Source: an uncultured virus (IMG/VR IMGVR_UViG_3300036832_000815) (taxonomy: Duplodnaviria; Heunggongvirae; Uroviricota; Caudoviricetes). Taken from it: 64,000 nt of DNA. Under the pieces are notes generated by a model. That model had not been told where the DNA came from, searched no databases, and worked only from the letters and a program-made list of their open reading frames with translations. The translations under genes and the position numbers were made by a program. This document shows positions 4,153-56,961 of this stretch, piece by piece. Within the stretch, counting starts at the first letter, position 1; every line of letters begins with the position of its first letter. The DNA lies in IMG/VR virus record IMGVR_UViG_3300036832_000815; one strand, written 5' to 3'.

Positions 4153-4508
4153 TGGCTGACCTGGAACGCTACTCCGACGGTGACATAGAAGCGGCCGGGC
4201 TCCTGGCCTATCGCCTGTTCCAGCCGGTGCTGCCGCACGTCCTGGTCGAGGAGTTAGAGGCCGAGGCCGGGACCCAGGCTCTACACCTGACCATCGAGGG
4301 TGACATCAACGCCGCCTCCAGGGATGAGCCGATCGTCATCTATGTGCCCGAGGCCATCCAAACCAAGCATCTCAGCCGCGTCTTGGACTCTCATGATCAC
4401 AATCCCCCACCTCATGCCATGGACGCCATCCGGGCGAAGCTGGGCCGTAATGAAGAGTTGACCATGGAGGAAGTCACCCAGGCGCTCAAGTTCTTGCTGG
4501 GGGTGTAG
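4149..4508 (+). CDS. Hypothetical protein
   Basis: 119 aa, start and stop overlap both neighbours. Confidence 0.7.
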   Translation: MMADLERYSDGDIEAAGLLAYRLFQPVLPHVLVEELEAEAGTQALHLTIEGDINAASRDEPIVIYVPEAIQTKHLSRVLDSHDHNPPPHAMDAIRAKLGRNEELTMEEVTQALKFLLGV

Positions 4509-5500: not shown

Positions 5501-5501
5501 C

Positions 5502-6497
5502 ATGGCACCCATAACTGTACGCAACTTTTCGAATACCACTCCACCCACCAATCTCACCGCCAACATCGACAACTCCTTGACCACCACCAATATCCCGGTG
5601 GCCTCTACGGCAGGCTATCCTGTTGTCCCTTTCACCGGATGCTTCGAGCGCAATACCAACAACCAGGAGTTCGTGCTTTGCACCAACATCATTGATGCCA
5701 ATCACTTCAGCGTGGTGCGGGCCTACGACGGTACCCCGGCCGTGCAGCATCTGGCCCCGGCCACCTTCGAGCATTGCACCGGGGCCATCGACTTCAGAGA
5801 GGCCAACCAGCATCACACCGACACCACCAGGGATGACCATCTCCAGTACCTGCTGACCAACGGGTCGCGAGCCGTCACCGGGTTGCAGACCTTCAACGGT
5901 GGTATCAGTTCCACCACTCTGGCCCTGGCCGGTAACCCCGGCTCCAACATCGCCACCCGCTATGTGGGTGGGACTGGTCCCGGTAATGGGCCGCCAGGAG
6001 GGACCGGCACTCCCTTCTTAGTGGGCGACTGGTGCCTGGATCCTTCTGGCTGCCGCTGGTTCTGCGTGGCCGCCGGTACACCCGGTACTTGGGTGGCCGA
6101 GCCCGGTCACGTCTACGCCCGCGTCTACGGGCCTGCCAAGAGCCAGGACATCATCAACCGCCAGGTCCAGGTCCTCACCTACACCTGGACCGCCGTCAAG
6201 GGCATCACCTACGAGGTCGATGTCCGCTTCCAGGGCCTGATCATCACCGCCGATCCGGCCTGGGTGAACTCGGTGTTGACCTGTACCGGCGGCATGCTCC
6301 CGGCCACGGTCTACGTCATGAGCATCTCCGGGGCCGCCTTCGTGCCCGGCAACGTGGTGTCGGGCTCCTGCACGGTGTCGCTCACCCCGGTGGCCACCAC
6401 CGCCGCGCAGACCTTGCGGCTGTACGCCACCTCGGCCGGTCGAGGGGCCATGCGGATGACCGGCTACAACGCCGAGTTGATCATGCGAAGAGGGTGA
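5502..6497 (+). CDS. Minor tail/fibre-like protein, paralog 2
   Basis: Shares RNFSNTT...PFTGCFERNT...DDHLQY N-terminus. Confidence 0.75.
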   Translation: MAPITVRNFSNTTPPTNLTANIDNSLTTTNIPVASTAGYPVVPFTGCFERNTNNQEFVLCTNIIDANHFSVVRAYDGTPAVQHLAPATFEHCTGAIDFREANQHHTDTTRDDHLQYLLTNGSRAVTGLQTFNGGISSTTLALAGNPGSNIATRYVGGTGPGNGPPGGTGTPFLVGDWCLDPSGCRWFCVAAGTPGTWVAEPGHVYARVYGPAKSQDIINRQVQVLTYTWTAVKGITYEVDVRFQGLIITADPAWVNSVLTCTGGMLPATVYVMSISGAAFVPGNVVSGSCTVSLTPVATTAAQTLRLYATSAGRGAMRMTGYNAELIMRRG

Positions 6498-6500
6498 GCG

Positions 6501-7502
6501 ATGGCTACTCCCATCCTGGCTCGCAACTACTCGAACACGGCACTTCCCACCAACCTGACGGCCACGGTCGATAACCAGCTATCCACCACCAACATCCCGG
6601 TGGCCTCCACGGCCACCTATCCTCCGGCTCCCTTCACCGGTTGTTTCGAGCGCAATACCATCAACCAGGAGTTCGTCCTGGTGACGGCCATCCCTGATCT
6701 GAATCACTTCACCGTGGTGCGGGGCTATGACGGCACTCCCCCGGTGCAGCACCTGGCTCCGGCCACGTTCGAGCATGCGGTGGGCTCGATCGACTACCGC
6801 GACGCCAACTGGCACCACACCGACACCAGCCGTGACGATCACCTGCAATACCCCTTGACCAATGGCAGCCGGGCCTTCACCGGCCCGGTGAGCGCCCCGG
6901 CCTATGGGGCCACCATGACCGGCACCAGCGGCCGATACGTGGGCATCACCAATGGCGCGCCCACCGCCGGTACCTACCTGGCCAACGATTACGCCGCCGA
7001 TCCCACCAACCGTTGTTTCTGGTTCTGCATGGCTGGGGGAACGCCGGGGACATGGTCCTCATCACGCATCAAGCCATCGGCCCGAATAGCGGCTTCGGCT
7101 CAGACCGTCCTGTCGGCCAGTACCTGGACCCAGATCGCCTTGGCTGCTACCGATCATGCTGTGGGGGGTTGCACCATCGTCGCTCCCAGCAGTATTCGGC
7201 TGCCCATCTCCGGGATCTACCGGATGTCTTGCGCCATCATGTACCAGACCAACAACGGTGTGGCCGCATTTGGTCGCTATGTGGCCGCGGTGTATCGCAA
7301 TGGGGCCATGGTGCGCCAGTACAACGACTCCGGTGATACCAGTGCTTATTATCAGCCGGGTGGATCGGACACCGGACAGTTCGCAGCCGGGGATCTCGTC
7401 ACCCTGTGGGGTTGGCAGAACTCCAGTGGTCTGGAAGGATCCTACGGCAGCGGTGTTTACACCAATCTGGCCGTCGAGTTCGTCACCTATTTATCAACAT
7501 GA
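6501..7502 (+). CDS. Minor tail/fibre-like protein, paralog 3, C1q/TNF-like tip
   Basis: Shared N-terminus; C-terminal IRLPISGIYRMS...AAGDLVTLWGWQ beta-sandwich pattern. Confidence 0.7.
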   Translation: MATPILARNYSNTALPTNLTATVDNQLSTTNIPVASTATYPPAPFTGCFERNTINQEFVLVTAIPDLNHFTVVRGYDGTPPVQHLAPATFEHAVGSIDYRDANWHHTDTSRDDHLQYPLTNGSRAFTGPVSAPAYGATMTGTSGRYVGITNGAPTAGTYLANDYAADPTNRCFWFCMAGGTPGTWSSSRIKPSARIAASAQTVLSASTWTQIALAATDHAVGGCTIVAPSSIRLPISGIYRMSCAIMYQTNNGVAAFGRYVAAVYRNGAMVRQYNDSGDTSAYYQPGGSDTGQFAAGDLVTLWGWQNSSGLEGSYGSGVYTNLAVEFVTYLST

Positions 7503-9365: not shown

Positions 9366-9398
9366 CGCCAGCATGAGATGATATGAGATGAGCCCGAC

Positions 9399-9433: not shown

Positions 9434-9469
9434 ATGACCACCAAACGGAATATCCAGGGAGGGGCCTGA
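9434..9469 (+). CDS. 11-aa leader peptide MTTKRNIQGGA
   Basis: ATG at leaderless position; TGATG overlap with next gene; contains GGAGG. Confidence 0.5.
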   Translation: MTTKRNIQGGA

Positions 9470-10137
9470 TGTACGGCCGCTCCACCACCAACGGCCAGGG
9501 CAACCGGGCGCGTGACACCCAGCGCGCCAAGCTCTACAAGGCCGAGGCCGTCCTGCACGGCCCGCCCGACTTCAAGACCATCCAGGAGTGCCAGGCATTC
9601 GTGGATGCCGTCATGGCCAGCCGCTGGGTGGCGGCCCGCTTTCGCCCACGGCGCATCGAGGTCACTCCCGGCTATGGCCGTACCAGTGCCTGCGCGGCCG
9701 GTGACGACGAGATCCGCCTGCCCATCTGGTCCCGGCAGAAGCCAATCATCCTGCATGAGATCGCCCACTGCCTGATCGACTACGGCTACACCCGCTACGC
9801 CTGGCATGGCCCGGAGTTCGCCGGGCTGTTCCTCAGCCTGGTCCACCACGTCATGGGCCAAGAGGCGGCAGCCAAGCTGCGAGTCAGCTTCAAAGCCCAC
9901 CGGGTTCGCAGCAATCTCAAGGCCGTGCCCTCCTCGCCGCGCTACACCGTGGTGCCCAAGGCCCAGGTCCAAGCTAAGGCCCGTCAGCGGGCCGCTACGC
10001 CCCTTACCGCCAACGAGCGGACCCAGGTGGCCGCCCTGCTGCGTCGGGCCGCTAAGGCCGGACAACTGGGTGCCGCCGATCGCAAACCTCGTCAGCACGC
10101 CCTGGCCACTGCTCGTCTCCTGGAAGGAACCAAATGA
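9469..10137 (+). CDS. HEXXH zinc metallohydrolase (TIGR04338/SprT-like)
   Basis: RDTQRAKLYKAE...IILHEIAH...HGPEF. Confidence 0.75.
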   Translation: MYGRSTTNGQGNRARDTQRAKLYKAEAVLHGPPDFKTIQECQAFVDAVMASRWVAARFRPRRIEVTPGYGRTSACAAGDDEIRLPIWSRQKPIILHEIAHCLIDYGYTRYAWHGPEFAGLFLSLVHHVMGQEAAAKLRVSFKAHRVRSNLKAVPSSPRYTVVPKAQVQAKARQRAATPLTANERTQVAALLRRAAKAGQLGAADRKPRQHALATARLLEGTK

Positions 10138-14494: not shown

Positions 14495-14779
14495 ATGACC
14501 ACCACTGAGACGCAAGTCACCCCCGAGCCCCAGACCGAGTGGCAGGCCGTCATGGCCCCCCTCCGCGACAACCCCCTGTGGCACCCGGTGCGGATCGCCG
14601 CCACCGAGGCCATCGAGGCCGATCTCATCCGCATGGCCGGACCCGACCATGGCCAGGGCATCGGCACCTCCGACATCAACCATCAGATCTTCGCCGTGGC
14701 CCGCCACCTGGATCCCGGCCTGCGCCTGTGGCCCCTGGCCTACGCCAAGGCCATCGTGGCCGCCCTGGAGACGTGGTGA
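14495..14779 (+). CDS. Hypothetical protein (MTTT start)
   Basis: Leaderless position after promoter. Confidence 0.7.
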   Translation: MTTTETQVTPEPQTEWQAVMAPLRDNPLWHPVRIAATEAIEADLIRMAGPDHGQGIGTSDINHQIFAVARHLDPGLRLWPLAYAKAIVAALETW

Positions 14780-19684: not shown

Positions 19685-20130
19685 ATGACCACCACCGAGA
19701 AGGACTTCTTCGACGCCTGGACCGGCTTCGCCGTCAAGGCGGCCGAGGGCCTCGACCTCAACGACGCCGATGACCGGGCCATCTTCCGCTCGCGCTTCGC
19801 GGAGCGTACCCGGAACCTGCGGGTCAGCGCCCTCATCCTCCTGGCCGCCGAGTGGGGCTCGCCCCAGCCCGGTAACGCCAGCCGCTCCGACGCCTGCCGG
19901 GCCGTGGCCGACGCCTGGATCGCCAGGTCGCAGTCATGACCGCCTTCCGGGTCTCCCAATCCTCCTGGGACCAGAGCGGCTGTCGCACCGATGTCGCCGT
20001 CACCGGTCCTGTGGCCGACGCCCTGGCCGACATCGCCGCTCAGGCCCTGACCCTGTCCCCGGCCATCGGCTCGGTGGTCTTCGAGGCCCCCGACCATCAC
20101 TCTCGCATCACCGTCTTCCGGGCGACTTGA
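19685..20130 (+). other. Two small CDS: 19685-19939 (MTTT start), 19936-20130
   Basis: ATGA coupling. Confidence 0.6.
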
Positions 20131-20162: not shown

Positions 20163-20429
20163 ATGACCACCACTCTCACCGAACGTCAGCAGTACTACCT
20201 GGATCGCCTCGACGCCAACGTCTGCTCCGCTCAGAGCCGCCTGGATGTCGCCACCGTCAAGGTAGAGGCGGCGCGGGCCGCGGGCGTGGACACCTCCACC
20301 TTCGATCCTCGCACCTCGGCCTGCTCGGCCGACTTCTCTCTCCGCAAGCTCCAGGGTGGCGTAGACCAGGCCATCAAGAACTACGAGGCCTACGTGGCCC
20401 AGCTTGCCGCCAAGGGGGTCGAGGTTTGA
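20163..20429 (+). CDS. Hypothetical helical protein (MTTT start)
   Basis: Start reassigned from 19770 to the promoter-proximal ATG. Confidence 0.7.
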   Translation: MTTTLTERQQYYLDRLDANVCSAQSRLDVATVKVEAARAAGVDTSTFDPRTSACSADFSLRKLQGGVDQAIKNYEAYVAQLAAKGVEV

Positions 20430-22386
20430 TGCCCGGCCCTCGCGGCACCTTCACCGAGGAGGAGGCCTGGGAGCGCTCCGCTCACTTCGCCGCTCCCCAT
20501 TGCCGTCGCTGTCACGGCCAGGGCACCTACTGGATCTACATGGGCGGGGAGCAGTCCGCCATCCATCTCTGCCATTGCGTCCGCAACAAGGCCGGGTTTG
20601 TGCCCGGCATCATCTACAGCCGGGAGCGGGCCAATGGCTAGGGGCGGCGGCAAGCGCTTCGAGGTCTGCCCCAAGTGCGGCAAGAAGGGCTTCTACGTGG
20701 AGCATGGCTGGTCCATGAACCCTGCCGGGTCCATGCGTTGTCGCTACTGCTACCACACCCAGCTACCGGACCAGGTCTCCATCTTGGAGGTCCCCGATGT
20801 GCCCGACACCTACTTCGACCGCCTGGACGCCGCCCTGGACACCTTCCAGTGGGCCTACCAGGACCGCGAACACAACCGGGGCGAGATCCACCTCGATCGA
20901 GAGGCCCGTGACGGGGCCGGAGAGCTTGTCATGTCCATCTTCGTGGCCGACACCGCCGATGAGTCCTACGACCCCCAGGAGACCCCTCTGGTGCCTCTGG
21001 TGGGCCGCTACCCGGTCGATACCTACAAGGACCCTCAGGCCATGATCCGGGAGGCCATCCACGCCTACGTGTGCCATGAGGCCGACGAGCAGATGTGGTT
21101 CGACAACGAGCGCATCTTCGATCCTCACCGGGAATCCGCATGAGCGATTTCAATGAGGGGAATGCTCCTCGCGATGATGAGCAGGATCGTTTTAAGCGAT
21201 TTTCCGATGAGATCGATCGGATGTCCCACTATGGCGAGATTGCTGATCAGCTAGCGCAAATAGGCTATTCTCCTGCTCAGTTAGTCCAGTTGTTTTCTCT
21301 TTCGCATACCTTATTAGGACAGATCCACCATTTGGCCGAAGTGGAACTGGCAGACTATACCGGCATTGAGATCACCGATCCTGGCTTTGGAACGCTACAG
21401 CGGATTCGGGATATCTTGAACTGGGTCGTAGATCCTCAAGATGATAACCTGACGATACAACAGGATTATATGCGTGCTTGGTGGGAGATCTTCGGTCCCC
21501 CGGAGCAATATCCAGGAGATATCTTCCATTGAGGAGATCTGATGCCTAAGCCCAAGACCCTACGCATCGTCATGGCCTGCACCGAGCCCGACCACAAGGC
21601 CCACTGGCACGTCACCCAGCGCAAGTGCAACTACTCGGCCTTCAACGGCTACCACTACACGCGCAGCGACTACAGTCAGGTGCGCTGCCCCATCGATGGT
21701 AAGACGTGGCGCTCGAAGGGTGCTTACGTCGATGCCCTGCCTGATGCTCCGGCTGATTGGAGCCGAGGTGCCTAGACCGGGACCTAGACCCCAGAAGGGC
21801 ACGCCCGAGTACAAGCTGTGGATCGAGGCCATCGAGGTGGCCCTGGCCGCTCCCATGCATCAGAACGAGAACGCCTACGCGGCCAAGATCCCCTGGTCGC
21901 GCATCCACAAGCTGCGGGCCGCCCTGGAGGGGGTGGGCATCGACTGGAAGGCGGCCAAGGAGGTCCAAGACGGCCCCAAGCCCGAGCGCAGCTACCAGCG
22001 CCATGAGCCCTCCGGCCAGCGTGAGTACGAGCCCGACGGTGACTACCTCTGCACCTGCGGGGCGCGCCAGTCCTTCTTGATCCCCATGCAAGCCTGGATG
22101 TGTTCGGCCCTGGGCCGACCCACGGCCGCCTTCGACAAGATTCCTCCGCCCGAGGAGCATGCGACAATGGACCATGGCGCAGAACCCTGACCTCATGTCC
22201 GCCATCGGCGGTGCCCTGCCCGGAGCCTGCAGCGCGGCCGGGTCCTCCGGCGACTGGACCGGGGCGGCGGCCCAGACCTTCCTGACCGGCCTGGAGAACC
22301 GCGGCTACACGGTGGTGCCCATGGTCACCACGCCGGTCAGCTACCAGGATCCGGGCATCCAGAACTACACCCCGACCACGGGTTGA
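20429..22386 (+). other. Small hypothetical CDS: 20429-20641, 20634-21143, 21140-21532, 21542-21775, 21768-22190, 22174-22386
   Basis: Mostly overlapping ORFs, several with CxxC; 21140-21532 is lower GC. Confidence 0.6.
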
Positions 22387-22411
22387 TCTCTCTAAGCAAA
22401 CCTGCTAACGT
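22383..22411 (+). promoter_or_regulatory. Repeated leaderless promoter
   Basis: TTGATC-TCTCTAAGCAAACCTGC-TAACGT, ATG at 22418. Confidence 0.85.
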
Positions 22412-22417
22412 GCGGCC

Positions 22418-22672
22418 ATGTTCACGGCCGACAAGCGGTGGTTCATCTGCAGCCACGCCCTGGAGCGCATGATCGAGTTCGGCCTCGATCGGGCCACCGT
22501 GGTGGACATCTGCGACGACCCCGAGGTCAGCTACCCGCCCTACCTGAACCGCAACGAGCGGCGCATCTACGTCAAGGGGGAGTTCGCGGTGGTGGCCCAC
22601 CCGGCCGACAAGGTCATCATCACTGTGTTGCGGAACCTGCCCGAGTGGTGGCACCGCATCCTGCCCGCCTGA
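22418..22672 (+). CDS. DUF4258-like (RelE-related) small protein
   Basis: SHALERM..GL..ATV..I..DP...RRIY...VIITVL. Confidence 0.6.
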   Translation: MFTADKRWFICSHALERMIEFGLDRATVVDICDDPEVSYPPYLNRNERRIYVKGEFAVVAHPADKVIITVLRNLPEWWHRILPA

Positions 22673-22673
22673 C

Positions 22674-22702
22674 TTGACTCCTCTAAGCAAACCTGCTAAC
22701 GT
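22674..22702 (+). promoter_or_regulatory. Repeated leaderless promoter
   Basis: TTGACT-CCTCTAAGCAAACCTGC-TAACGT, ATG at 22710. Confidence 0.85.
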
Positions 22703-22709
22703 TCCTGCC

Positions 22710-24137
22710 ATGACCACCACCGAAGTACCCATCAACGTGCAAGACCTGCACATCGTGGTCGCCGCCTTAGGCGGTCTGACCAACAAAGCCTTCATCGGCT
22801 ACACCGCCGTGACCGGCCCCATGTCCTACGACGAGGCCCTCAAGGTCTGGGAGGACCGGGAGCGGCTGCGCTCCGACCACTCTCGCAGGCGCAACAGCCA
22901 CATCCTGCACTACGCCGTGCGCTCGATCGATGACCCCCGCTTCGCTCCCCTGATCGGTCGGGGCTACGCCGATGGTCGCACCCGCGACGGCCTGCGTGGC
23001 AACGGCGACTACGGCCGGGTCAAGGCCGCTCGGGCCTGGGCCAAGCTGTACGGCTACAAGGGCGCAGGCGGCGGCTGGATCTACGACACCAAGGGCCGCA
23101 CCGTCTGCCAGGGCTGGCAGAGCTTCGCGGAGTACCTGCGCCGCAACGGCAAGATCGTCAGGGGCTCCGATGACCTCTGGTACGTCATCGACCGGGAACT
23201 GGTGGCCTGACATGACCAAGCTCACCACCCGCCAGCGTGACAAGCTGATCGAGGCGGCCCAGACCGCCATCGAGTTCACCGTCCTCGGCACCGGGGAGTT
23301 CCCCTTCGACATGCTGCGCCATGACCGGGCCTGGCCTGCCACCGAGTCCGACGCCCGCAAGCTGGAGTCCCCAGGCTACGGCCGAGAGGCCATCAACTAC
23401 CGCAACGTCGAGCGGGCCATCAAGCTGCGCGGCCTGGTCGGTCCCACCGTGGCCCGTTGGGCCAGCTTCGGCTGGACGGCGGTGCCCTCATGACCGCCAC
23501 CCAGACCCCCGTCATCGACCGCATCAACGCCAGCCCCGAGCCTGAGGTCCTGGCTCCTATCACCCTCGACGCCGCCACCTACGTTCACGCCGACTCCCGC
23601 CACCTCTCCCGCATCTTGAAAACCGCCGGTCTGCCCCGCGCCAACAACGACCGGGGCGGTCACAGCGGCTTCGGCTTCTACGTCACCGAGTCCAGCGTCA
23701 GCGTCCACACCAACTGGTTGGGTGGCAGCGAAGAGGAGCGGGCCAAGATCCTCATGGACCAGATAGTGGCCATCCTGCGCGAGCGGGGCTTCGTGGTCAC
23801 CGGCCTGGGCACCTACAGCCGATACGTCTTTAAGGCCGAACCCGATCACGCCTGGTACAACCTGCACCCGGTCTACGTGGACGCCGGGGACGGCTCCCTG
23901 GTCAACGCCCACCGGGTCCCGGCCTTCGTGGCCGAGCAGAAGGCACGGGCCGATCGCGACCAGAAGGCCCGCAAAGAGGCTCAGGCGGCTGCTCAGGCCC
24001 GTCAGGACCGCCGGGACGAACTCATCAAGGATCTGGCCAAGCAGGGCCTGGCCGTCGATCGCTGCGCCTCCTACCAGATCACCATCGACGCCGACGCCTT
24101 CATCACCTGGTTAGGACGGGAGCCCGAGACTGATTGA
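22710..24137 (+). other. Three CDS: 22710-23210 (MTTT start), 23212-23493, 23490-24137
   Basis: Closely packed ORFs after the promoter. Confidence 0.65.
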
Positions 24138-24163
24138 CTTCCTCTAACCTAACCTGTTAGGCT
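24134..24163 (+). promoter_or_regulatory. Promoter copy not followed by an ATG
   Basis: TTGACT-18-TAGGCT with CTCTAAC-CT-AACCTG spacer. Confidence 0.7.
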
Positions 24164-24169
24164 GACCAC

Positions 24170-24375
24170 CTGACTGATCCTTCTCACTGATCCTCCGAGG
24201 CCGGGTGCAGCGGCCACACCCGCCAGGCCCGGCGAAGCGAGGCCCGCCCCTCCGCTTTGCCCCTCGGCCTCGGGGGAACCTTCGCCTCGACGGTGCTTAG
24301 TACTGTGGTGGTCATAGCACCGTCTGAGGCCGCCAACACCGCCGCCATCCCTCACCGGGTGGCGGCGGTGTTTTT
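24170..24375 (+). ncRNA. Candidate ~200-nt structured small RNA
   Basis: Between promoter and terminator; stems 24192-24205/24263-24276, 24231-24239/24253-24261, 24284-24297/24316-24330. Confidence 0.6.
24335..24375 (+). terminator. Intrinsic terminator
   Basis: AACACCGCCGCCATCC / GGGTGGCGGCGGTGTT stem ending in a T5 run. Confidence 0.8.
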
Positions 24376-24377
24376 CG

Positions 24378-24878
24378 TCAGGGCACCGATTGGGCCTGAG
24401 TGGCGGTTTTGGAGTTGGCCAGCAGGCTCTTGGCCAGGTTCATGGAGTTGGTCATCTGCTGGGCGGCGAAGCTCAGCACCGTCTTGATCTGGGCGTCGGC
24501 GGCCGGGTCATGACCGCGCAGGGCCGGGTCGATCTCCAGGCCGGTGTCCCGCAGGAAGCGCTGGAAGGCGTCCCAGGTGATCCAGTTGGCGTGGTCCCGG
24601 TGGTTCTTCTCGATCAGGTTCGGGTGGCTGCCGGGCTTGGCCATGATCTTCCAGCGGGCGATGCGGCCGTAGCCCTCGCAGGCGATGGTGTAGCGGGTCT
24701 GCCGCCGGGAGGAGCCCTGGATGCGGCGGTAGTCCTGCAGCCACATGCTCATCTCGTCCACGGTGATATGCATCAGGGCGGCCAGGGTGGCGGCCCGTAC
24801 CCCGCCGGGGTCGATGCCCTTGCGACCGGCCATGGACACGATGTAACGATCGAGGGCATCCTCCACGATATGGCTCAT
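24378..24878 (-). CDS. Hypothetical protein, possible winged HTH
   Basis: ATGA overlap with upstream minus gene; RAATLAALMHITVDEMSMWL. Confidence 0.65.
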   Translation of the reverse strand: MSHIVEDALDRYIVSMAGRKGIDPGGVRAATLAALMHITVDEMSMWLQDYRRIQGSSRRQTRYTIACEGYGRIARWKIMAKPGSHPNLIEKNHRDHANWITWDAFQRFLRDTGLEIDPALRGHDPAADAQIKTVLSFAAQQMTNSMNLAKSLLANSKTATQAQSVP

Positions 24879-25750
24879 GATCCGATCCCCATCTCGGCCA
24901 TCCAGGTCAGGTCGTCCTGGGTGAGTTCACCGTGGGTCTTGAACATGGCGATGTAATGCTCCAGGCGGACCAGTTCGCCGTCCACCTCGGCCTGCTCTTC
25001 GGGGGTGTCCAGGCCGTACTCCTCCTGGCACAGGATGGCCTCGGCCATGGCGGAGGTGGCGTTGCGGATGGCCGCCGCGATGAGCGAGGTCCGTAGGGTC
25101 TTGGCCGTGCGGGTGGCGTGACGGCGGGTCTGCTTGCGGGTCTCCTCCTCGTCGTAGGGCTCGGCCTCGACGCGGGCCTCGATGGCCGCCTCCTCCACCA
25201 TCTCGATGGCCACCGGGTTGGAGGCGATGGCGGCGGCCACGGCCTCGGTGACGCTGTGGGCCACCATCTCGGGATGGTCCTCGGCCAGCCGTCCCAGGAC
25301 GATCTCGGCCGTGCGCTCGTCCAGGTTTGAGGCCAGCACCTCAGCGTCGAGGTCCTGACGGTCCAGGCTGCGGGCCACCGTCTTCTCGTCTTTGCGGATG
25401 TAGCGGGTAGGGTCCCGATCGGCCAGTTCGGCCCAGGAGGCGGAGGGAAGCTCGACCCGGTCACCCGGCGCGGCCTCGACGGCCAGGCCCTCGTTGATGG
25501 CGTTCTGCCAGGAGTTGCGGTAGCGGCGCACGGTGTCCTGGGCGCGCAGCCCGCCGATGCCTAGCTGGGCGAAGTCCCGGATGGTAGATCGCACTGAATG
25601 TCGTGCGATCTGGGGGCCGGGCTTGCCCTCGTAGGTGAAGGCGAACACGATGACGCTGCGTTCCCATTCCTTGGCCGTCAACAGCCCCTCGATGCCTTCG
25701 AGGGCAGCTATAGCCTCACGAAGAGTTCCTGGTATTTTTATGGTCGTCAA
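24875..25750 (-). CDS. Hypothetical protein, possible DNA-binding
   Basis: TTG start with AAGGAG upstream; TIRDFAQLGIGGLRAQDTVRRY HTH-like segment. Confidence 0.7.
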   Translation of the reverse strand: MTTIKIPGTLREAIAALEGIEGLLTAKEWERSVIVFAFTYEGKPGPQIARHSVRSTIRDFAQLGIGGLRAQDTVRRYRNSWQNAINEGLAVEAAPGDRVELPSASWAELADRDPTRYIRKDEKTVARSLDRQDLDAEVLASNLDERTAEIVLGRLAEDHPEMVAHSVTEAVAAAIASNPVAIEMVEEAAIEARVEAEPYDEEETRKQTRRHATRTAKTLRTSLIAAAIRNATSAMAEAILCQEEYGLDTPEEQAEVDGELVRLEHYIAMFKTHGELTQDDLTWMAEMGIGS

Positions 25751-25871
25751 CGCACTCTCCTTGTCTCAGGCCACCCTGCCCCTTGGGAAAGCACATCCAT
25801 GCATAGCGGTGGTCTGGCAAGGATACCTGTGAACTCCCACCACATCAAGCGTTAAATGCCAACGATGACAT

Positions 25872-25907
25872 TTATCGACGGTGAGGGGGAGTTATCGACG
25901 GTGAGGG
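25872..25907. repeat. 16-bp direct repeat TTATCGACGGTGAGGG x2
   Basis: Copies at 25872-25887 and 25892-25907. Confidence 0.85.
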
Positions 25908-25913
25908 TGAGAG

Positions 25914-26222
25914 ATGACCAGAGTTACATCAACGGAGCGAGCCGAGATCATGGCCCAGGCCCTGGCCGCCAAGTTCTTCGATGATGAGCATTGGGAGTGG
26001 AACCAGGTGGCCGACTGGCTGCTGGACACCTACCTGCCCCTCGAAGCCCGCCTGCGCCGTCTGAGAGCCCTCCTGGACCTGCAGGGGGTCACCTACGTGA
26101 CCTGGGAGGAGCCCGAGCCCGACGAGACCGCCCAGGTCATCTTGGACGGCTTGGGCATGCGGCTGGGCGTGCGTCGAGAGCGCGGCCGCAATCTACGGGT
26201 GCTGCTCCTGGGGGTGACTTGA
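25914..26222 (+). CDS. Hypothetical protein
   Basis: 102 aa; stop lies in the next promoter's TTGA. Confidence 0.6.
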   Translation: MTRVTSTERAEIMAQALAAKFFDDEHWEWNQVADWLLDTYLPLEARLRRLRALLDLQGVTYVTWEEPEPDETAQVILDGLGMRLGVRRERGRNLRVLLLGVT

Positions 26223-26247
26223 CCGCTCTAAGGAAACCTGCTAACTT
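26219..26247 (+). promoter_or_regulatory. Repeated leaderless promoter
   Basis: TTGACC-GCTCTAAGGAAACCTGC-TAACTT, ATG at 26256. Confidence 0.85.
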
Positions 26248-26255
26248 GGGTCCTG

Positions 26256-27083
26256 ATGAGCAACCACCACAGTGAGGACATCCAAGTGACCGCCACCGTC
26301 AACATCTCCCGCGACGACCTGATCGCCGCCATGAACGCCAACAAGCCCGCCCCCCGGCCCCTGACCACCACCGAGCAGTCCGCCGCCGCGGGCTCCAAGT
26401 TCGCCCGCCCTGACACCGCCCGCCAGCAGGCCGCCGTGGCCCCCCAGTCCAAGCCCGAGCCCAAGGCCGCCCAGCCCGCCACCGAGCCCCAGTACAGCTA
26501 CCTCCGCAAGCTGCTGGCCGAGCGGGTGGGCATCACCGAGGCCGAGGACATCCGCAACGCCCTCAACCAGGCCCGCACCAACAAGACCCTGGATCGGGGC
26601 ATGGCCTCAGAGTTCATCACCCGCCTGCTGGCCATCCGGCCCAACCCGGTCGCTGCCCCTGCGCCTGCTGCTCCGGCCCCCAAGTCCGACGACGCCTGGA
26701 AGCGCCCGGACTGCGTGCCCGACGGCAACTACGCCCTGACCGCCGAGGACGGCCTGGTCAAGTTCTACGAGGTCAACACCAACCAGGGCGTGTGCTGGGT
26801 CAGCGTGCATGCCTCCGACGAGCGCTACAACCTCAAGGGCCGGGCGCGCCACCAGGTCCTCGACGCCATCGCCGCCGATCCCGTGGCGGCCCAGCGCCTG
26901 TACGGCTACAAGAGCCTGCGCTGCGGGCGCTGCGGCCGGGAGCTTTCCCTGGTCCAGAGTCGGGCCACCGGCTTCGGCCGCACCTGCGCTGGCAAGCTTG
27001 GGGTGGAATACCTGGGCGAGGCCGATGCCCGTGCCCTGCTGGCCGAGGGCAACATCTCGACCGAAGGGCTGAGTGACCTGTGA
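26256..27083 (+). CDS. DUF6011-like zinc-ribbon phage protein
   Basis: CGRCGRELS..QSRATGFGRTCA. Confidence 0.7.
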   Translation: MSNHHSEDIQVTATVNISRDDLIAAMNANKPAPRPLTTTEQSAAAGSKFARPDTARQQAAVAPQSKPEPKAAQPATEPQYSYLRKLLAERVGITEAEDIRNALNQARTNKTLDRGMASEFITRLLAIRPNPVAAPAPAAPAPKSDDAWKRPDCVPDGNYALTAEDGLVKFYEVNTNQGVCWVSVHASDERYNLKGRARHQVLDAIAADPVAAQRLYGYKSLRCGRCGRELSLVQSRATGFGRTCAGKLGVEYLGEADARALLAEGNISTEGLSDL

Positions 27084-29623: not shown

Positions 29624-32467
29624 ATGACCACCACCCATGCGCTTTACCCCGATCGGGTCGTCCTGCGCTCCGGCCGCCTGGCTGATGTCGATGAGCGGGG
29701 CCGGGCCGAACTCGTCACCTGCCCCTGGCTGGTCCAGGTGCCCTCGAATCATCCCGAGCCCGACTCCGAGGCCGACTGCTGGGTCACCCGTGATTGCGGG
29801 GCTCCAGCCTTCGCCATCGACGGTGACGCTGACGCCGGTTGGCGCTGCTCGAACGGCCATCATCACTACACCTACGGCTCCCCCCGCTGGGCCGCCGAGG
29901 ATCAGGCTGAGGCCGCCGTCGAGTACGCCGCCTCTTACGACCCCGATATCGCCCGCCGCCTGGACGCCGGGGAGTCCTGGCAGGCCATCGCCGGGTACGA
30001 CGACGAGGACGGGGATGCCGACGACTATTGGGAGCGCCAGGCCGAGGCCCGCCAAGAGGCCCGCATGGACGCCCGCGACGACGCCCGTGAGTGGGGCGGA
30101 GAGGACATCCCGTCATGACCACCGAACTGCCCAAGCTGGTCCACAAGGCCGAGGCCCATCCCACCTTCGCCGGGGATGGGGCCTCGACCTGTGTGGTCTG
30201 CCACCGGGGCATCCACAAGGTGCCCGGTGGGAGCGGCCCGGTGTGGGTCCATGATGACGGCTACGTGACCGGCCCCGGCTCACCCCCCGAACCCGCCGAG
30301 ACGGCCATCGTCATCACCGTGCCCGACACCGATGGCATCCAGGTGCTGGTGCGGATCTCCGGCCACCTCGACAAGGACACCGTGGCCGTGGACTTCCGCC
30401 CTCACCACCAGGCGTCCTGGACCCCGTCCGACTTCTTCCCCAACAGCGTAGGAGTGCATCACCAATGACCACCAAAACGCGTCTACCCAAGCCCGTCACC
30501 ATGAGCGAGCGGGAAGGCTGGGGCAACCGCCCCGACGCCTTCCGGCCCTTCTTCTGCAACGGCCGCCCGGACGGCACCACCTACACCCTGACCATGCTGG
30601 ACGCCATGATCCACGCCTGCCAGTTCGCCACCGCCGTGGACCGCGAGGGCCAGGACCCCGAGTGGCAGCAGCTTTACGACTGGGCCGAGCTATGGGAGCC
30701 CAAGCTGCAAGCGGCCAAGGCGGCCCCGCCCTGCGATGAGGCCCTGGTCCCCGACGTGCCCTGGATCCCTGCCGATCGCACCGCCCGCATGGGCCTCTTC
30801 GAGGTGTGCCAGGACTTCGTGGAGTACGAGCATGCCCAGGCCGTGGTGGTCCGTAATGAGTTCGGCCATCCCACCGGAGCCTACGAGTACGACGACAACG
30901 AGACCTACTGGCTTGTTACCCTTCTCGAAGGCTCTGACATTGTCCTAGATCCCGACTCTTTCAAGGAGCTAACCACCACATGACCACCACACCCGAGACC
31001 ACCCCTAAAGAGCGCCAGAACTTTGGCTTCGACGTAGGCCCCATGCACTTCGGCCGGGCCGGTATCATCGCTCGTCCCACCGAGCGTTCCATGACCGGCA
31101 ACTTCATCCTCGAAGCCGGACCAGCTTTGCGTAATGGCGGTTGGACCAAGAGCCTGCACATCGTGCTGACCCCTGACGAGGCCCGTGAGTTCCACGCCGC
31201 CCTGGGCCAGCTACTGGAGACCCAACCATGACCATCAACGAGACCCCCATCCCCCACATCCCCAAGACCTACCACCGCTACGCCATGACGCCCGAGGAGC
31301 GCATCAACAGCTTCGCGGACATGGCCCAAGCCATCCTGGAGAACCTGGATGAGCAGCAGCGCCGGGCGGCAGCGGGTGTTGAGGGCGAGGAGGAGCATCC
31401 CGTTGCCATGATCTGCCTGTCCTTGGCTGCCGCCTACGTGGAGGGAGCCCATGATGGTCGCAGCCATGGTTACGCCGATGGCTTCCTGCGTGGGAAGGGC
31501 GGTCCCACGCCATGAGAATCGAAGGCCCCATCGTCAACAAGACCGTCCACATTCCGGCCCATGACATCGAGGTGCTGGACGTGGACGCCTACTGGAACCT
31601 GGACTATTACGGCGACTACGCCCCCAACGAGGAGCCCATGAACCTGTACGCCAAGGTGGCCTGGCCCACCGTCGCCGCGGCCCAGGCTCAGTTCCGCACC
31701 GAGAAGCTGGCCCGTGAGGCTGAGACCCAGCAGGCCCGCCAGGGCACCCAGGAGGCCCGTAGAGCGGCCCTACGGGCTCGCAAGGCGCAAGGCCGGGCCT
31801 ATGCGGCCCAGAAGGCCCAGGAGACTGCTCAGTGACCCTCAAGGGCCAGAGGGAGATCCCCGCCATCGAGATCGAGATCGGGGACCTGCTGTGGCTGGCC
31901 GACTCCTGGGCCAAGGTCACCGGCTGGTACCTGGGGGCCAAGGGCAAGGTCCGCATCGAGGTCAACGACACCTGGATCGAGCGCTCCAAGACCCAGCACG
32001 TCTGGGTCCAGCGCGCCCCTCTGCTGTGTCAGACCTGCGGCCAGCCGCCCGAGGACCACGCCGACTCCGACGCCGGACCCATGACCGTCTGCCCCCGTGC
32101 CTGACACTCGCAGCCCCGAGGAGCAGGCCGCCGACGCCATCGGCTTCGGCTTGCACCTCTGCGGCCTGCCCTTGATGGTGCTGACCCGCCAGTCAAACGG
32201 CATCCGTTATGACTACCTGTGGTGCCCGAACTGCGAGGAGGAGGCGTGAGCGGCCCACTGGCCCAGCATCACCTCTTCACCAACCCGGCCAGCGTCGGGA
32301 CGGTCACCTGCCTGGCCTGTGGCCGTCGCTATGACCTGGACAATGGCTGGCAGGCCCTGATTGACCCCTGCATCGACGGGGTGTCCACCGGGCTGTCCGA
32401 GGCCGAGGCCAAGCGCCAGTGGCTGGTCAGCTTCTTCGACCTGCTCGGGCGGGCCATCGAGCTATGA
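29624..32467 (+). other. Operon of small CDS: 29624-30118, 30115-30468, 30465-30983, 30980-31231, 31228-31515, 31512-31835, 31832-32104, 32097-32249, 32246-32467
   Basis: Near-continuous ATGA/GTGA coupling. Confidence 0.7.
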
Positions 32468-35321: not shown

Positions 35322-37802
35322 GTGATCAAGTACGCCAGCCTGGAGATCCTCTCCTTCGAGTACGGCGATGACGGTCCCATTCGTCGCCAAGCTCACCGGG
35401 CCGACTTTCGCTACGATCCGAGGCCCGGCTTTCTGTATGTTCGATCACGGGCCATCTCATCCCGCTGCAACGACAACTACGATGACTTCCCGGCCAGTGA
35501 GATCATCAAGGGCTATCGCAGCTTCTTAGGCAAGCCGGTCTTCGTCAATCACGTCAACGACGACCATCGTCGGGCCAGGGGCGTGGTCATCGACGCCGCC
35601 TTGCATCACGATGTCAACCCCAATGGCACCCCCGACGTGTGGTGCGAAGTGCTGATGGAAGTGGACGCCCATCGCTTTCCCAAGCTGGCTCAGGCCATCG
35701 TCTTGGGCCATATCGACAAGACCTCCATGGGTGTCGATGTGGAGTACTCCATCTGCAGTGCTTGTGGGAACAAGGCTACAAATCCGGCTGAGTATTGCCG
35801 TCATATCCCCCAGATGAAGGGCTCCAAGATCGTCCGGCGCAATGCCAAGACCGGTAGACCAGAGGAGCATTTGATCTTTGAGACCTGCTATGGCCTGAGC
35901 TTCTTCGAGAACTCGTTGCTGGTGGAGGATCCTGCTGATCCCACCGCCTACTTCCTGGGCGTGGACACCCGAGGCTTGCATCGCACGGCCGCGGCCCGGT
36001 GGCGCTACGACGAGCGCGACACCAAGCAGCAGCGAGCCATCCTGCGCTCGAACCGCTCGGCCCAGAAGGCCCGTGAGCTATTCCCGCCCGGCACCAGGGT
36101 CAAGCCCCGGCCCTCCAAGGACGAGGAGCCCACGGCCCGCGGCACCGTCAACCGCCATGTGCCCGGCTCTGACGCACAGGGCGGCACCCTGGTCATCGAC
36201 TGGGACTCCGGGGTCACCGGCCGTCACGGTCCCATCTCCATCCTGCGTGACGACGCGCCACCGCCCAAGACCGGGCTGCGAGCCTTCGCCAGTTCAGATG
36301 AAGAAGGCCCTCGTACCGGCGAGTTCGGGGATGAACACGTCATGGTGCATGTCCACCAGTTCAAGCCGGGCCAGTACTACCTCCGCAACCTGTCGGTCCA
36401 CCCCAACTATCGGGGCGAGGGTATCGGGCGACGGTTTATGAAGTCCATCACCGACGAGCATGACCGCAACGGCTCCAAGCTGGTGCTGCACACGGCCCAG
36501 CCCGGCCTGGTCGATTGGTACAAGACCATGGGCTTCAAGCCCACCGAGTACGACGACTTCTTCAAAGCCCAACGCATGGAAAGAGAGCCACAGAAGCCCA
36601 TGCAAAGCTCGGTGACAAGTGGCCTGTTAAGATTCATAGCCGTGGCTGAGGAAGAGAATGATGACCTGAGCAGTTTGAGCCCCATGGAGATCGACCAGCG
36701 TCTGGGCGATCACCATGACAAGCTGTCCACCCATCTGGGCCGTCAGCACTCGGCCCTGCGGGAGATGCACTACGCCGTGGGCGACTCCGAGAGCGGCCGG
36801 GGCCGATCCAAGTCCTGGCGTAAGACCCACGCCGAAGTCCTGGGCACCGACACCACCGGCATGAACCCCCGGCGGGCGCGGGACTACGAGCGGGCGCGCA
36901 ACGCCTACGACTCGGCCGGTCAAGACGCCTCCACCGAGATGGGCCACATCGGCCGCCATGAGGACGAGTTCCGCAAGCGGGGCGGCTGGTCGCGGTTTTT
37001 CTTAGTCCCGGATGGACATATTCACTCGTCCATGCAATGCCACTCCTGCCACCCCACCACCCAGTTCTCCTGGCTGCCGCACCTGTCCGGCAAGACCGAG
37101 GGCGAGGCCGTCGAGGCCCACGGCCCCCACCTCTGCACCCACTGCTTCAAGTCCGCCCCCACCGAGTGGAAGCGCAACCCGGCCGAGACCCGCGCCGAGG
37201 AGAAGAAGCAGTCCGGCGAGTACTGCGAAGGCGGCAAGGCCAGCAGCTACCCTGACAGCGAGGAGCGCCAGCGCCGGGCCGCCGAGCATCCCAAGGGCCT
37301 GATCCGCCTGGACCCCGGTGAGGCCATGTTCTCCCCGCGCAAGCGCAGCTACGTGGGCCGCTGCCCCACCTGCAAGACCATGCAGAAGGTCAAGAACGAC
37401 GGCGAGTTCTACCAGCACAAGCCGCCCGAGCCCACCGAGGAGAAGCCCCAGCCCAAGCCGGAGCCACCGGCCACCACGGTCATGACCCCGCCGCGGGAGG
37501 AGCCCAAGCCTGCTGCCCCGGCCCCTGGTCCCAGCGACTTCGGGCCGCACACCGTGCCCCAGCTACCCCACCCCGACGAGAAGAAGGTCAAGTCCCATCT
37601 GAGGAAGGACCACGGGCTGCCTTACGCCGGGATCAAGAACATCGAGACCCGCAAGACCCTGATGGACGCCCATGAGGACATGCACGCCAACCCCAACTCC
37701 TGGGTCATCAACGGCCACACCCACCCCGAGGCCAAGGAGGGCTCCAGGAAGGGCCTGAGCGGCTTCGCGGCGGGCGGAGGTGGTGATGGTTGGGGTCATT
37801 AG
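35322..37802 (+). CDS. Capsid maturation protease (Bxz1-like) fused to GNAT and other modules
   Basis: YVRSRAISSR.NDNYD.FP...GKPVFVNH...TSMG.DV..S.CS.CGN...FFENSLLVEDPADPTA in the first ~220 aa; GNAT LSVHPNYRGEGIG...WYKTMGF. Confidence 0.8.
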   Translation: MIKYASLEILSFEYGDDGPIRRQAHRADFRYDPRPGFLYVRSRAISSRCNDNYDDFPASEIIKGYRSFLGKPVFVNHVNDDHRRARGVVIDAALHHDVNPNGTPDVWCEVLMEVDAHRFPKLAQAIVLGHIDKTSMGVDVEYSICSACGNKATNPAEYCRHIPQMKGSKIVRRNAKTGRPEEHLIFETCYGLSFFENSLLVEDPADPTAYFLGVDTRGLHRTAAARWRYDERDTKQQRAILRSNRSAQKARELFPPGTRVKPRPSKDEEPTARGTVNRHVPGSDAQGGTLVIDWDSGVTGRHGPISILRDDAPPPKTGLRAFASSDEEGPRTGEFGDEHVMVHVHQFKPGQYYLRNLSVHPNYRGEGIGRRFMKSITDEHDRNGSKLVLHTAQPGLVDWYKTMGFKPTEYDDFFKAQRMEREPQKPMQSSVTSGLLRFIAVAEEENDDLSSLSPMEIDQRLGDHHDKLSTHLGRQHSALREMHYAVGDSESGRGRSKSWRKTHAEVLGTDTTGMNPRRARDYERARNAYDSAGQDASTEMGHIGRHEDEFRKRGGWSRFFLVPDGHIHSSMQCHSCHPTTQFSWLPHLSGKTEGEAVEAHGPHLCTHCFKSAPTEWKRNPAETRAEEKKQSGEYCEGGKASSYPDSEERQRRAAEHPKGLIRLDPGEAMFSPRKRSYVGRCPTCKTMQKVKNDGEFYQHKPPEPTEEKPQPKPEPPATTVMTPPREEPKPAAPAPGPSDFGPHTVPQLPHPDEKKVKSHLRKDHGLPYAGIKNIETRKTLMDAHEDMHANPNSWVINGHTHPEAKEGSRKGLSGFAAGGGGDGWGH

Positions 37803-40800
37803 CCCCACGGGCTTACAGGACTTCGTAGCGGCCCTGGGGGCCAAGACCGACGAGATCTCGGTGGCGGGCCTGGCCGTGGTGGCCCGCGACACCGGCCGGG
37901 TGCTGATGCTGCAGCGCCTGCTCGATGGTAAGGATCCGGCCGGAGGCACCTGGGAGTTTCCAGGCGGGCACATCGATCCTGGTGAATCACCCATCGAGGG
38001 TGGTATCCGGGAGTGGAAAGAGGAGCTTGGCTGTCCACTGCCACCTGGCAAGGTGGGCGGCTCCTGGACCTCCAAGAAGATCTATCAGGGCTTCGTCTAC
38101 GTGGTCGATCGGGAGGACATGGTCGAGATCAACGACGACCATGAGGACCGTCACGTCCTGAACCCCGACGATCCCGACGGCGACGGCATCGAGGTGGCGG
38201 CCTGGTGGGATCCCGCTGACCTGCCCGACATGCCCGCCCTGCGCCCGGAGTGCAAGACCACCGATTGGTCGCTGTTTAGACCCAGTGCCATCAAGAAGGT
38301 AGCCAAAGAGAGTCTCGAATCCTGGTATCAGAACGTTGAGAACTACCAGGGCACGGTCGGTAACAAAGGCCATATCACCCGCAACGCCCAGATGCTGTTG
38401 CCCACGCATCTGGTGGCGAACATGCCCGGCAATGTGGACGAGCGGCCCGGTGAGCATCGCACTCGTCAGGGCCAGGACTGGGAGGACTTCAAGGATGACA
38501 TCGCTACCCACGGCATCAAAGACCCCCTCTTCGTCACCGTGCAGCATGGTCAGCAACCACGGCTGTCTGAGGGCAACCACCGTCGCGACGCCGCGGTTGA
38601 GCTAGGGCTCAAGCACGTCCCGGCCTTCGTCCGCTACTACGGCCACGCCGAGCAGACCAGCGACCTGGAGGACCAGGCCCGCAAGTGGTGGACCTACAAT
38701 CCCCAGCACCTGCCCAAGGAGGCCGCCTATGACCTGCTGGGACCGGGCAAGGGCCATTACTTCGAGCCGGAGGAGGAGGGCAGCGACTGGTGCGCCGTGT
38801 GTGGTCATCACCAGAGCGTCACCCGGCATCCGCCCAAGGAGGGCCTGCGGGCTTTCGTAGCTGTCAACCATCAATATCTTTTTCACACTTCCCCACCTCA
38901 TAATCGAGAAAGTATTACCGAGAAGGGTTTACTTCCTCATACGCCATTTGCGCATGATGTAAATCAACCTGACCTTCCTCATGGGGTTTATCTTGATTCT
39001 GATGAAAAGATGGCTCTTGATACTGGAAACGATTATGGAGAAGATGTATGGAAGGCGGATGTCACTGGGTTGAAAACTCATGTTGATCCGTGGTGGGAGG
39101 GGGTTACTCATAGGTCCAACACAAGTCATTATGTCGAGGAAGCGATTCCGCCTCATCGTTTAACTTTGCATCGGCCTGCACCATCTCACCATCATGAAGC
39201 TGGTTTAGCGGCCTTTGTGGCCGTCAACAGTTCAGATGAAGTACCACCGCCGATGGGGGAGTCACCCATCCCCGAGGGCCATGTGCGGCTGTTCCATCAG
39301 ACTTCGGTGAAACAGGCCGAGTCGGTGCGCCAGCACGGTCTGACCATGGAGCATGCCCGTGATATCAGCGGGCCGCGTGGCATTTGGGCCAGTCACGGCA
39401 CCCGTTTCTACGGCGAAGGCGATGAGCATGCCACGGTGGAGTTTCACGTCCCTTACGACGAGCTACGCGATACCGCTGGAGGTCAGTCTCCCCATCGAGG
39501 TCAGCCCCAGGAGGACTGGGAGAAAAGCACCCACCACACCCTGATCATCCCCCGCAGTATCAAGCCGCATGAGATCTCGGCTATCCATCTGCCCTGGCAC
39601 AATCGTTATCACTACTTCCATGATAATGGCATGACCGATGAGGTGAAGAAGGGTGAGTTCGACAACCTGGCCGACATGAAGGACTACGGCCCGGCCATCG
39701 ACAAGATCAAGCGGGAGGGCATGCGCCATCTGGCCATGAACGCCGAGGACGAGGTGCCGCCTCGATTGGGGACCGCGCCCATCCCCGAGGACCACGTCCG
39801 GCTCTACCATCACACCTGGAGCCGCAATGTCCCCAGCATCCGGGAGCATGGCCTGCTGGCCGAGATGGGCCAGGGTGACAGCGGTAAGGGCTATGGTAAC
39901 GAGGCTTCAGCCGGAGTGTGGGCGGCCAGCCAGCATCCCGAGCCGGATCCCCAGAGCGACCGGCATGTGATCGAGTTCCACGCCCATCCCAGAGATATCG
40001 ATGTCAACGGGCCTTCCCCTGGATCCGATATCCACAAGTGGAACCAGGGCGATCACAACGTCCTGATGCGGGGCAGTGTCAAGCCCGAGAACATCCTGGC
40101 TATCCATGCTCCCTGGCATACCGCTTATCATCAGATCAACAATGATGCCCGCGACCGGGAGGATGTGAAAAACGGCAAGCTGGACTGGGTCCATAACGAT
40201 CCCAGCATGAAAGAGGTCAGCAAGGCCGTCCACAAGATCCAGTCCGAGGGCAAGAAGACCCGCAACACCGAGAAGCCCCAGCAATGCAAGTGGTGCAAGC
40301 AGCCCGCCACCAAGTCCATGCTCTGGGCCGAGGGTATGGCTTACATCCCCACCTGTGACCAGCATGAAGCAAAGACCCGTGATCACATTGAGGACAAGGA
40401 GAATGACGAGGTCGTCGCGGTCCATCAGATCAAGCATGGGGCCAAGCAGCCTTACATCGGCAAGGGCTGGTGGCTGACGCCCGAGGGCAAGAGGATCGGC
40501 GTCTACGATCACTACGAGACCACCCCTGGCATGGCTCGGCAGATGATCCGCCCGCACATGGCCGAGAGTGGACAAGTAAGGGTCCGTAGCTTCAACAATC
40601 AACTCAACGTGCAAACGTCGAGACCGTTCACCGATGCCCAACGCCAGTCTTTGCTGCTCGATGCCGACAAGCATTCCCGCATGTTCGTGGACGTGCTGCA
40701 CCCCGACACCGAGGAGTCCATCCACTCCGAGTCCGGTGGTCCCGAGGACGCCGATCGCCTGCTGGCCCGAGCCCACCGGGCCGCCATCCCCAAGACGGCC

Positions 40801-50536: not shown

Positions 50537-50538
50537 CC

Positions 50539-55943: not shown

Positions 55944-55945
55944 AG

Positions 55946-56952: not shown

Positions 56953-56961
56953 GTCCATCCC

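Follow-up and report, generated by a model that had tools for sequence, protein, structure and literature searches.

We analysed a 64,000-nucleotide (nt) stretch of DNA from an uncultured virus (IMG/VR record IMGVR_UViG_3300036832_000815), hereafter called the window, and in it a 240-bp gap between two convergent genes, 23457..24137 on the plus strand and 24378..24878 on the minus strand, which is filled by a predicted non-coding RNA (ncRNA). The window, with a G+C content of 63.5%, reads as a genome stretch of a novel, actinophage-like tailed phage, probably from soil. Its major head protein is 56–57% identical to counterparts in Gordonia and Mycobacterium phages, and it also encodes an amidase endolysin, a cement protein and very large open reading frames (ORFs). 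Rough codon-based calling gave a set of 91 genes, nearly all on the plus strand, for most of which no Pfam or PHROG family was found.

A predicted structured RNA between two convergent genes

At the left side of the gap lies a promoter-like site (24134..24163, plus strand), which overlaps the stop codon of gene 23457..24137 and consists of a −35 element TTGACT (24134–24139), an 18-nt spacer and an extended −10 element TGtTAGGCT (24155–24163), with TG at 24155–24156 and the −10 hexamer TAGGCT at 24158–24163. The ncRNA predicted from the fold and from conserved pairs is about 205 nt long (24171..24375, plus strand), its start being placed 6–8 nt after the −10 element by analogy with the promoter family described below. 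Folding of 24165–24376 gave −117.1 kcal/mol with a z-score of −7.7, and none of 200 shuffled sequences was as stable. Domain 1 (24191..24277), supported by the fold and by RNAalifold, is Y-shaped, with a long closing stem and two short hairpins carrying C-rich apical loops (24212–24217 and 24240–24247); these loops are C-rich in the related phage as well and could be a second targeting surface. Domain 2 (24284..24330) is a 14-pair hairpin (helix 4) presenting an 18-nt loop, UAGUACUGUGGUGGUCAU (24298..24315), in which positions 24305–24315 are the exact complement of AUGACCACCAC. An intrinsic terminator (24335..24375), recovered both in the fold and by a terminator scan, ends the element with a 16-pair G+C-rich stem (24335–24372) and U5 (24371–24375). 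Three nt separate it from the stop of the convergent gene 24378..24878, and it is the only terminator-like site in 22300–26400.

When the whole window was searched against Rfam 15, including the models for c4, 6C, tRNA and tmRNA, no match reached its gathering score. The best sub-threshold match had 20 bits against a cut-off of 60, and ARAGORN found no genes. The RNA alone, compared by blastn with 50,697 phage records, gave only two 28-nt chance matches (E = 0.8), and positions 23400–25800 gave no match to these records by megablast or blastn. No related locus was found when viral, metagenome and genome contigs were searched with the 166-aa and 215-aa neighbouring proteins, and nothing was found in viral contigs with the promoter motif and a 21-mer as DNA patterns. 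With the 291-aa leftward neighbour as query we obtained one relative, the 77,232-bp IMG/VR contig L001/G001 (G001 below). A 19-mer loop pattern returned this relative plus two unrelated chance matches (L010 and L011), and a domain-1 stem pattern returned it plus two chance matches in coding sequence (L013 and L015).

Similarity to the relative in blastn begins at window position 24125 (G001 336), 9 nt before the −35 element, and on the right reaches about 63.6 kb; from the RNA promoter rightwards the two phages are collinear over about 40 kb, and the mosaic boundary is sharp. Positions 1–24124 had no counterpart in the relative by blastn, and tblastx of 1–24200 produced low-complexity noise only. 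As the similarity starts at 24125 and the genes just upstream of the element are unrelated (215 aa in the window vs 71 aa in the relative, BLASTP E = 0.17), the promoter–RNA–terminator module and the two leftward genes beyond it constitute the left edge of the shared block. Identity to the relative is 82.9% in the module vs 75.8% in the adjoining 2.9-kb block, and 70–71% at the fourfold-degenerate sites of the two neighbouring genes.

Folded on its own, the relative's sequence adopts the architecture described above (z = −7.2). By RNAalifold and by direct count, 60 predicted pairs are kept in both sequences (120/120 cells paired), and the changes between the two comprise five compensatory doubles and three one-sided changes to or from G-U, with no pair broken. 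Two of the compensatory changes and one G-U change lie in helices 1–3 of domain 1 (30 pairs), two compensatory and two one-sided G-U-compatible changes in helix 4, which has no broken pair, and one compensatory change, C-G to U-A in the relative, in the terminator (helix 5). In controls in which the partners were slid by 1–3 columns, 42–52% of cells were paired with 0–1 compensatory changes; a shuffle control gave 17/500, the floor with two sequences being about 1 in 32. The first-pass annotation of this DNA, made from the sequence alone, had described a promoter copy followed by about 200 nt of stems and a terminator in place of an ATG, with a hairpin at 24284–24330 presenting an 18-nt loop, and had named covariation in related phages as a check. 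The sequence, the fold and the terminator scan bear out the description, and the stems do covary, with the five compensatory changes coming from one relative. The z-scores and the 60/60 kept pairs likewise speak for a conserved, structured RNA module on the plus strand with its own promoter-like site and terminator. We concluded that a conserved, structured, non-coding plus-strand RNA is very probably real.

Folding energy does not separate the two strands (−117.1 vs −113.4 kcal/mol). The G-U pattern points to RNA from the plus strand: read on the minus strand, the same pairs fill 111/120 cells, the nine G-U cells turning into A·C mismatches, and three of these nine arose by substitution. The same pattern bears on the idea that the locus acts as DNA, for example as an origin, a recombination or packaging site or a cluster of protein-bound operators, whose inverted repeats merely resemble RNA stems. 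Its position at a mosaic boundary between two phages and the operator-like promoter copy inside it would suit such an element; however, G-U cells tolerated on the plus strand would be mismatches in DNA, and the T-run follows the last stem on the plus strand only. We regard a DNA-level element as very improbable.

The minus strand carries an ORF (54 or 43 aa, MTTTVLSTVEAK...), the shorter form of which the first-pass annotation had pointed out, together with its translation as an alternative to the RNA. The ORF exists; its frame is open and begins ATGACCACCAC in both phages, and the G+C content at its third codon positions is 0.80–0.82. However, its codon log-odds are negative (−0.11 or −0.09 per codon), whereas seven accepted small genes used as the coding comparison set score +0.54 to +0.89; and, in a comparison with the related phage, 12 of its codon differences are nonsynonymous and 3 synonymous, two indels shift the frame and the stop is lost. 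Upstream of it there is neither a family promoter nor a ribosome-binding site, its ATG lying within the hairpin beside the terminator stem. No homologue of the 54-aa ORF was present in 5.8 billion protein clusters, and an overlapping 68-aa minus-strand frame matches only the relative's overlapping ORF. With codon score, substitutions, frame, stop and homologues all against it, and with the G-U pattern pointing to the other strand, a small minus-strand protein is hardly credible here. Plus-strand ORFs across the element have negative codon scores too.

A repeated promoter and the loop complementary to leaderless 5′ ends

The promoter-like site at 24134 is a divergent member of a repeated family with the motif GACTTGAy..CTCTAAGnnAACCTGCTAAnGT. 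Besides this copy, a position weight matrix (PWM) found eight sites, to which a degenerate copy at 19648 is added; the copies lie on the plus strand at 9394, 12345, 14455, 19648, 20122, 22378, 22669, 26214 and 29583, and motif matches in the relative lie at G001 2445, 4911 and 74859. The family is marked by an unusually conserved spacer (CTCTAAGnnAACCTG) and an extended −10 element (TGnTAAnGT). The conserved spacer has the look of an operator that a phage regulator would bind, or of a dedicated recognition element. A sigma-70 consensus scan of 22300–26400 called no promoters and recognised no family member, since their −10 hexamers follow the pattern TAnnnT; the case for promoters is therefore built on repetition, position and the TGn extended −10 instead. 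All nine of the other copies have an ATG 6–8 nt past the −10 element, so the nine downstream genes are leaderless by position. The 24134 copy, alone among the ten, has no ATG, GTG or TTG at the expected start and thus does not qualify as a leaderless cassette. Its PWM score is 13 vs 48–55 for typical copies; its TTGAyT, TG and TAnGCT are retained in the relative.

The loop 11-mer GTGGTGGTCAT (24305–24315) has as its reverse complement ATGACCACCAC. By frequency this sequence shares first place among the 11-mers of the window, occurring seven times on the plus strand (14495, 19685, 20163, 22710, 29624, 30980 and 48916) and once on the minus strand, in the loop itself, against an expectation of 0.05 occurrences. 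Among the nine leaderless 5′ ends, five begin with the exact 11-mer, one has 10 of the 11 nt, one has 11 pairs in a shifted register, one pairs with the help of G-U and one shows no pairing. The five exact candidate targets, all on the plus strand, are the first 11 nt of genes of 94 aa (14495..14505, behind a family promoter, with a net energy of −14.7 kcal/mol), 84 aa (19685..19695), 88 aa (20163..20173) and 164 aa (29624..29634), and of the leaderless operon 22710..24137 (22710..22720), which gives the best duplex among the leaderless starts, −23.5 kcal/mol, with extra GUAC pairing. The shifted candidate is ACCACCACAGT at nt 8–18 of a leaderless DUF6011 gene (MSNHHS...; 26263..26273, plus strand), which forms 11 contiguous Watson–Crick pairs (−21.2 kcal/mol) in another reading frame; the relative has GACCACCACAG at the same place. 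The start at 12385 pairs at −17.0 kcal/mol using G-U pairs.

The 10-of-11 candidate (9434..9443, plus strand) lies at the 5′ AUG of a leaderless transcript; this AUG opens a mini-ORF only, as its frame has stops. Within 9434–9471, the 11 codons of the mini-ORF (MTTKRNIQGGA) contain a ribosome-binding site, GGGAGGGG, and end in a stop that shares bases with the ATG of gene 9469..10137 (cTGATG), so that this is possibly a leaderless upstream ORF coupled to the main gene.

The 11-mer is associated with leaderless starts: it opens 5/9 leaderless genes vs 1/82 other genes (Fisher p = 1.6e-5), and the median duplex energy with the loop was −19.6 kcal/mol for leaderless starts vs −10.7 kcal/mol for the other 82 (Mann–Whitney p = 6e-5), with 8/9 leaderless 5′ ends forming duplexes of −17 kcal/mol or better. 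The 11-bp duplex itself is worth −18.4 kcal/mol and the target 5′ ends open at a cost of 0.1–1.0 kcal/mol, leaving a net −14.2 to −15.1 kcal/mol. RNAcofold was discarded, because it has no way to model a hairpin loop that pairs with another RNA and used the 5′ tail instead.

The five proteins beginning MTTT are mutually non-homologous, and in the relative a 674-aa helicase-like protein, unrelated to any of them, has the same promoter and a gene that begins ATGACCACCACC. Unrelated genes thus carry the same start behind the same promoter, which argues that the shared start is a nucleotide-level feature of the promoter cassette and not inherited protein sequence. The relative's homologue of gene 29624 (G001 4911–4985) has a rearranged promoter and a GTG start and begins GTGACCACCACC, which still pairs with the loop, with G-U at the first base.

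In the relative, 17/18 loop positions are unchanged, the one difference lying outside the 11-mer, whereas identity is 107/120 in paired columns, 48/81 (59%) in other unpaired columns and 7/20 in the 5′ tail; the binomial p for at least 17/18 is 0.001 at the 59% baseline. In the predicted ensemble most of the loop stays unpaired, the cost of freeing the 11-mer being 3.3 kcal/mol for the window sequence and 5.3 kcal/mol for that of the relative. On these points too the first-pass annotation proved sound. It had named six sites whose start is the exact reverse complement of the loop 11-mer, and all six are, with 48916 as a further one that it had missed; its 10-nt matches at 9434, 10134 and 30465 are real; and the accessibility and conservation of the loop, both of which it had proposed to check, came out as a loop predicted to be largely open and nearly invariant.

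Proposed action of the RNA

We propose that the element is a stand-alone, phage-encoded structured ncRNA of about 205 nt, transcribed from the plus strand, and that it probably arises by two routes: as a transcript of its own, driven by its variant of the early promoter, and as the 3′-terminal part of the upstream leaderless operon mRNA, the terminator 24335–24375 ending both. As there is no terminator-like site between 22710 and 24335, transcription of the operon should yield plus-strand RNA over the element anyway; a further, short primary transcript starting near 24171 is suggested by the conserved promoter-like site, by analogy with its family. The stable RNA would accumulate during early transcription, and its 18-nt loop would pair with the very first nucleotides of leaderless early mRNAs, nt +1 to +11 (AUGACCACCAC), and also with the shifted ACCACCACAGU site in one further mRNA. 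Such pairing would hide the 5′-terminal start codon from 70S ribosomes, so that a set of unrelated early genes would be damped together; and, with RNA and targets sharing one promoter type, the effect would be that of a delayed brake on early expression. We put the probability that the loop is an antisense blocker of leaderless 5′ AUGs at about 45%, judging from the sequence. We infer that the RNA is transcribed from the 24134 promoter, where it starts, that it pairs in vivo, and in which direction and when it acts; pairing may stabilise leaderless mRNAs rather than repress them. The interpretation in the first-pass annotation, a phage small RNA that would block the 5′ AUG of leaderless early transcripts as a feedback or early-to-late switch, is thus upheld in part.

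Several observations weigh against antisense blocking. The leaderless gene at 22418 has no complementarity to the loop. In this G+C-rich genome 0.7% of random 20-nt stretches reach −19 kcal/mol with the loop, many sites that are not starts score −21 to −23 kcal/mol, and several internal ones score −21 to −24 kcal/mol, including 13 contiguous pairs at 48916, inside a gene of the structural region. Energy alone thus does not single out targets, and the regulon is defined by 5′-terminal position, not by pairing energy. Starts encoding M-T-T occur in 10/91 genes, half of them non-leaderless, and ACC makes up 74% of Thr codons, so that ordinary coding bias supplies part of the frequency of the 11-mer. 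The shared first 11 nt could serve the promoter, promoter escape or leaderless ribosome binding instead. The 17/18 identity of the loop is only modestly unusual at other baselines (p about 0.014 at the 70% of fourfold sites, and 0.046 at 75.8%), and, as loop and targets are both unchanged in the sole relative, covariation provides no link between them. Finally, the 24134 promoter copy is the weakest of its family, and the consensus promoter scan calls nothing there.

The upstream operon offers a way for the loop to act in cis. Its mRNA starts at 22710 with AUGACCACCACC, no terminator-like site intervenes before 24335, and its 5′ end forms the strongest predicted duplex of all the leaderless starts; the loop in its 3′ untranslated region (UTR) could therefore pair with its own 5′ terminus, circularising the mRNA and either blocking translation of the first gene or shielding the 5′ end from 5′-dependent RNases. 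However, this arrangement leaves unexplained both the conserved promoter-like site directly before the RNA and the presence of the same 11-mer on at least four other transcripts, which end elsewhere. Moreover, the upstream gene is different in the relative, where the start of the operon lies off the contig. We consider cis action improbable.

It is also possible, though in our judgement less likely than antisense blocking, that the RNA is real and structured and has another job, either as a protective, terminating 3′ module of the two convergent operons or as a protein-binding or decoy RNA, with its loop conserved as a protein site or its complementarity a relic, for instance an inverted copy of a gene start. 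This would be consistent with the element being the only terminator-like site for the upstream operon, and hence 3′ UTR in any case, with the lack of loop–target covariation, and with the C-rich, conserved loops of domain 1, which hint at other partners; besides, actinophage ncRNAs need not be antisense regulators. On the other hand, a relic would not remain 17/18 identical while other unpaired columns fell to 59%, chance hardly places the complement of the most repeated 11-mer in an exposed loop, and a promoter-like site is conserved at the left edge of the shared block.

Carried to its full extent, the antisense proposal would make the element the first small RNA (sRNA) found to control a leaderless-mRNA regulon by pairing with the 5′-terminal start codon itself. 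What marks a gene as a member of this regulon would be the first 11 nt to be transcribed and translated (AUGACCACCAC), which would travel with the promoter cassette onto unrelated genes, across mosaic phage genomes. We advance this wider claim tentatively, on sequence evidence, and at somewhat below even odds.

Neighbouring genes and comparison with known systems

Directly beyond the terminator, a two-gene leftward cassette (24378–25750, minus strand) encodes proteins of 166 aa and 291 aa that belong to no known family and are conserved together with the RNA. The 166-aa protein has a predicted helix-helix-helix-hairpin pattern and may be a DNA-binding regulator; its AlphaFold model was unusable (predicted local distance difference test score, pLDDT, 39), its structure neighbours in the atlas were weak winged-helix leads, all below threshold, and three protein relatives of it exist (P0002–P0004). 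Elsewhere in the window, three tandem genes of 330–333 aa (4508–7502) have similar N-termini (VATPIAARNF, MAPITVRNFS and MATPILARNY) and resemble tandem paralogues, and two adjacent small paralogous genes of 53 and 57 aa (50375–50712; MPHQVTVVKA and MARQVTIVRA) each cross-match both copies in the relative. The very large ORFs encode 1377 aa with LigT/2′-5′ RNA ligase and DUF7178 domains (19–4152), 1917 aa with NUDIX and GNAT domains (37786–43539) and 2065 aa (56962–63159). Internal repeats in 52812–63159 cross-match several places in the relative.

Actinobacteria and their phages have many leaderless mRNAs. Initiation on them is by 70S ribosomes, which depend on the 5′-terminal AUG (PMC9031893). 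This 2022 review states that, to its authors' knowledge, no sRNA or protein that binds leaderless mRNAs for regulation has been reported, and its table gives the effect of sRNAs on leaderless mRNAs as 'Unknown' (PMC9031893). Our literature search, which covered some sources only in part, found no description of sRNA control of leaderless mRNA 5′ ends. The element is a compact candidate for such control, a 243-bp module and an 11-nt target. If the proposal is true, a phage co-regulates unrelated genes without any 5′ UTR, the use of one promoter type for the RNA and its targets gives a built-in delayed shut-off of early genes, and actinobacterial leaderless expression would gain a portable repression tag in the 11-mer. 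Should the antisense reading fail, the element would still add a new, conserved and structured RNA to a phage lineage whose genes are almost all unannotated.

Mycobacteriophages L5, D29 and StarStuff make abundant early non-coding RNAs of about 500 nt at the right end of the genome, from an early promoter and with no conserved ORF, and no function or target is assigned to them (PMC5712189). The RNA described here is likewise a predicted ncRNA of actinophage type, with a promoter-like site of the early family and no conserved ORF; it differs from theirs in length, at about 205 nt, in lying away from such a right-end position, and in having a candidate target. The actinobacterial sRNA 6C/B11 (PMC10470900) invites comparison as well, as domain 1 here carries C-rich apical loops. 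6C itself was absent among the Rfam matches up to E 10. In 6C, C-rich hairpin loops serve as seeds against the G-rich ribosome-binding sites of leadered mRNAs, whereas the main conserved loop here is G/U-rich and faces AUGACCACCAC.

The closest parallels in mode of action are two phage immunity RNAs, to neither of which the present RNA has sequence or model similarity in the Rfam search. The CI RNA of satellite phage P4, also a small phage RNA, likewise has a loop that complements repeated sequences of early transcripts, and it is P4's main regulator; it acts by premature transcription termination, and its targets lie inside leaders, not at start codons. The c4 antisense immunity RNA of the enterobacterial phages P1 and P7 masks a Shine–Dalgarno region of a leadered mRNA and is processed from the same operon. 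As we propose for the present RNA, c4 is a phage-encoded structured RNA that acts in trans, with exposed loops directed against short repeated sites on the phage's own early transcript, and blocks initiation. The difference lies in the site, which here would be the 5′-terminal AUG and the following 8 nt of leaderless mRNAs, on several separate transcripts.

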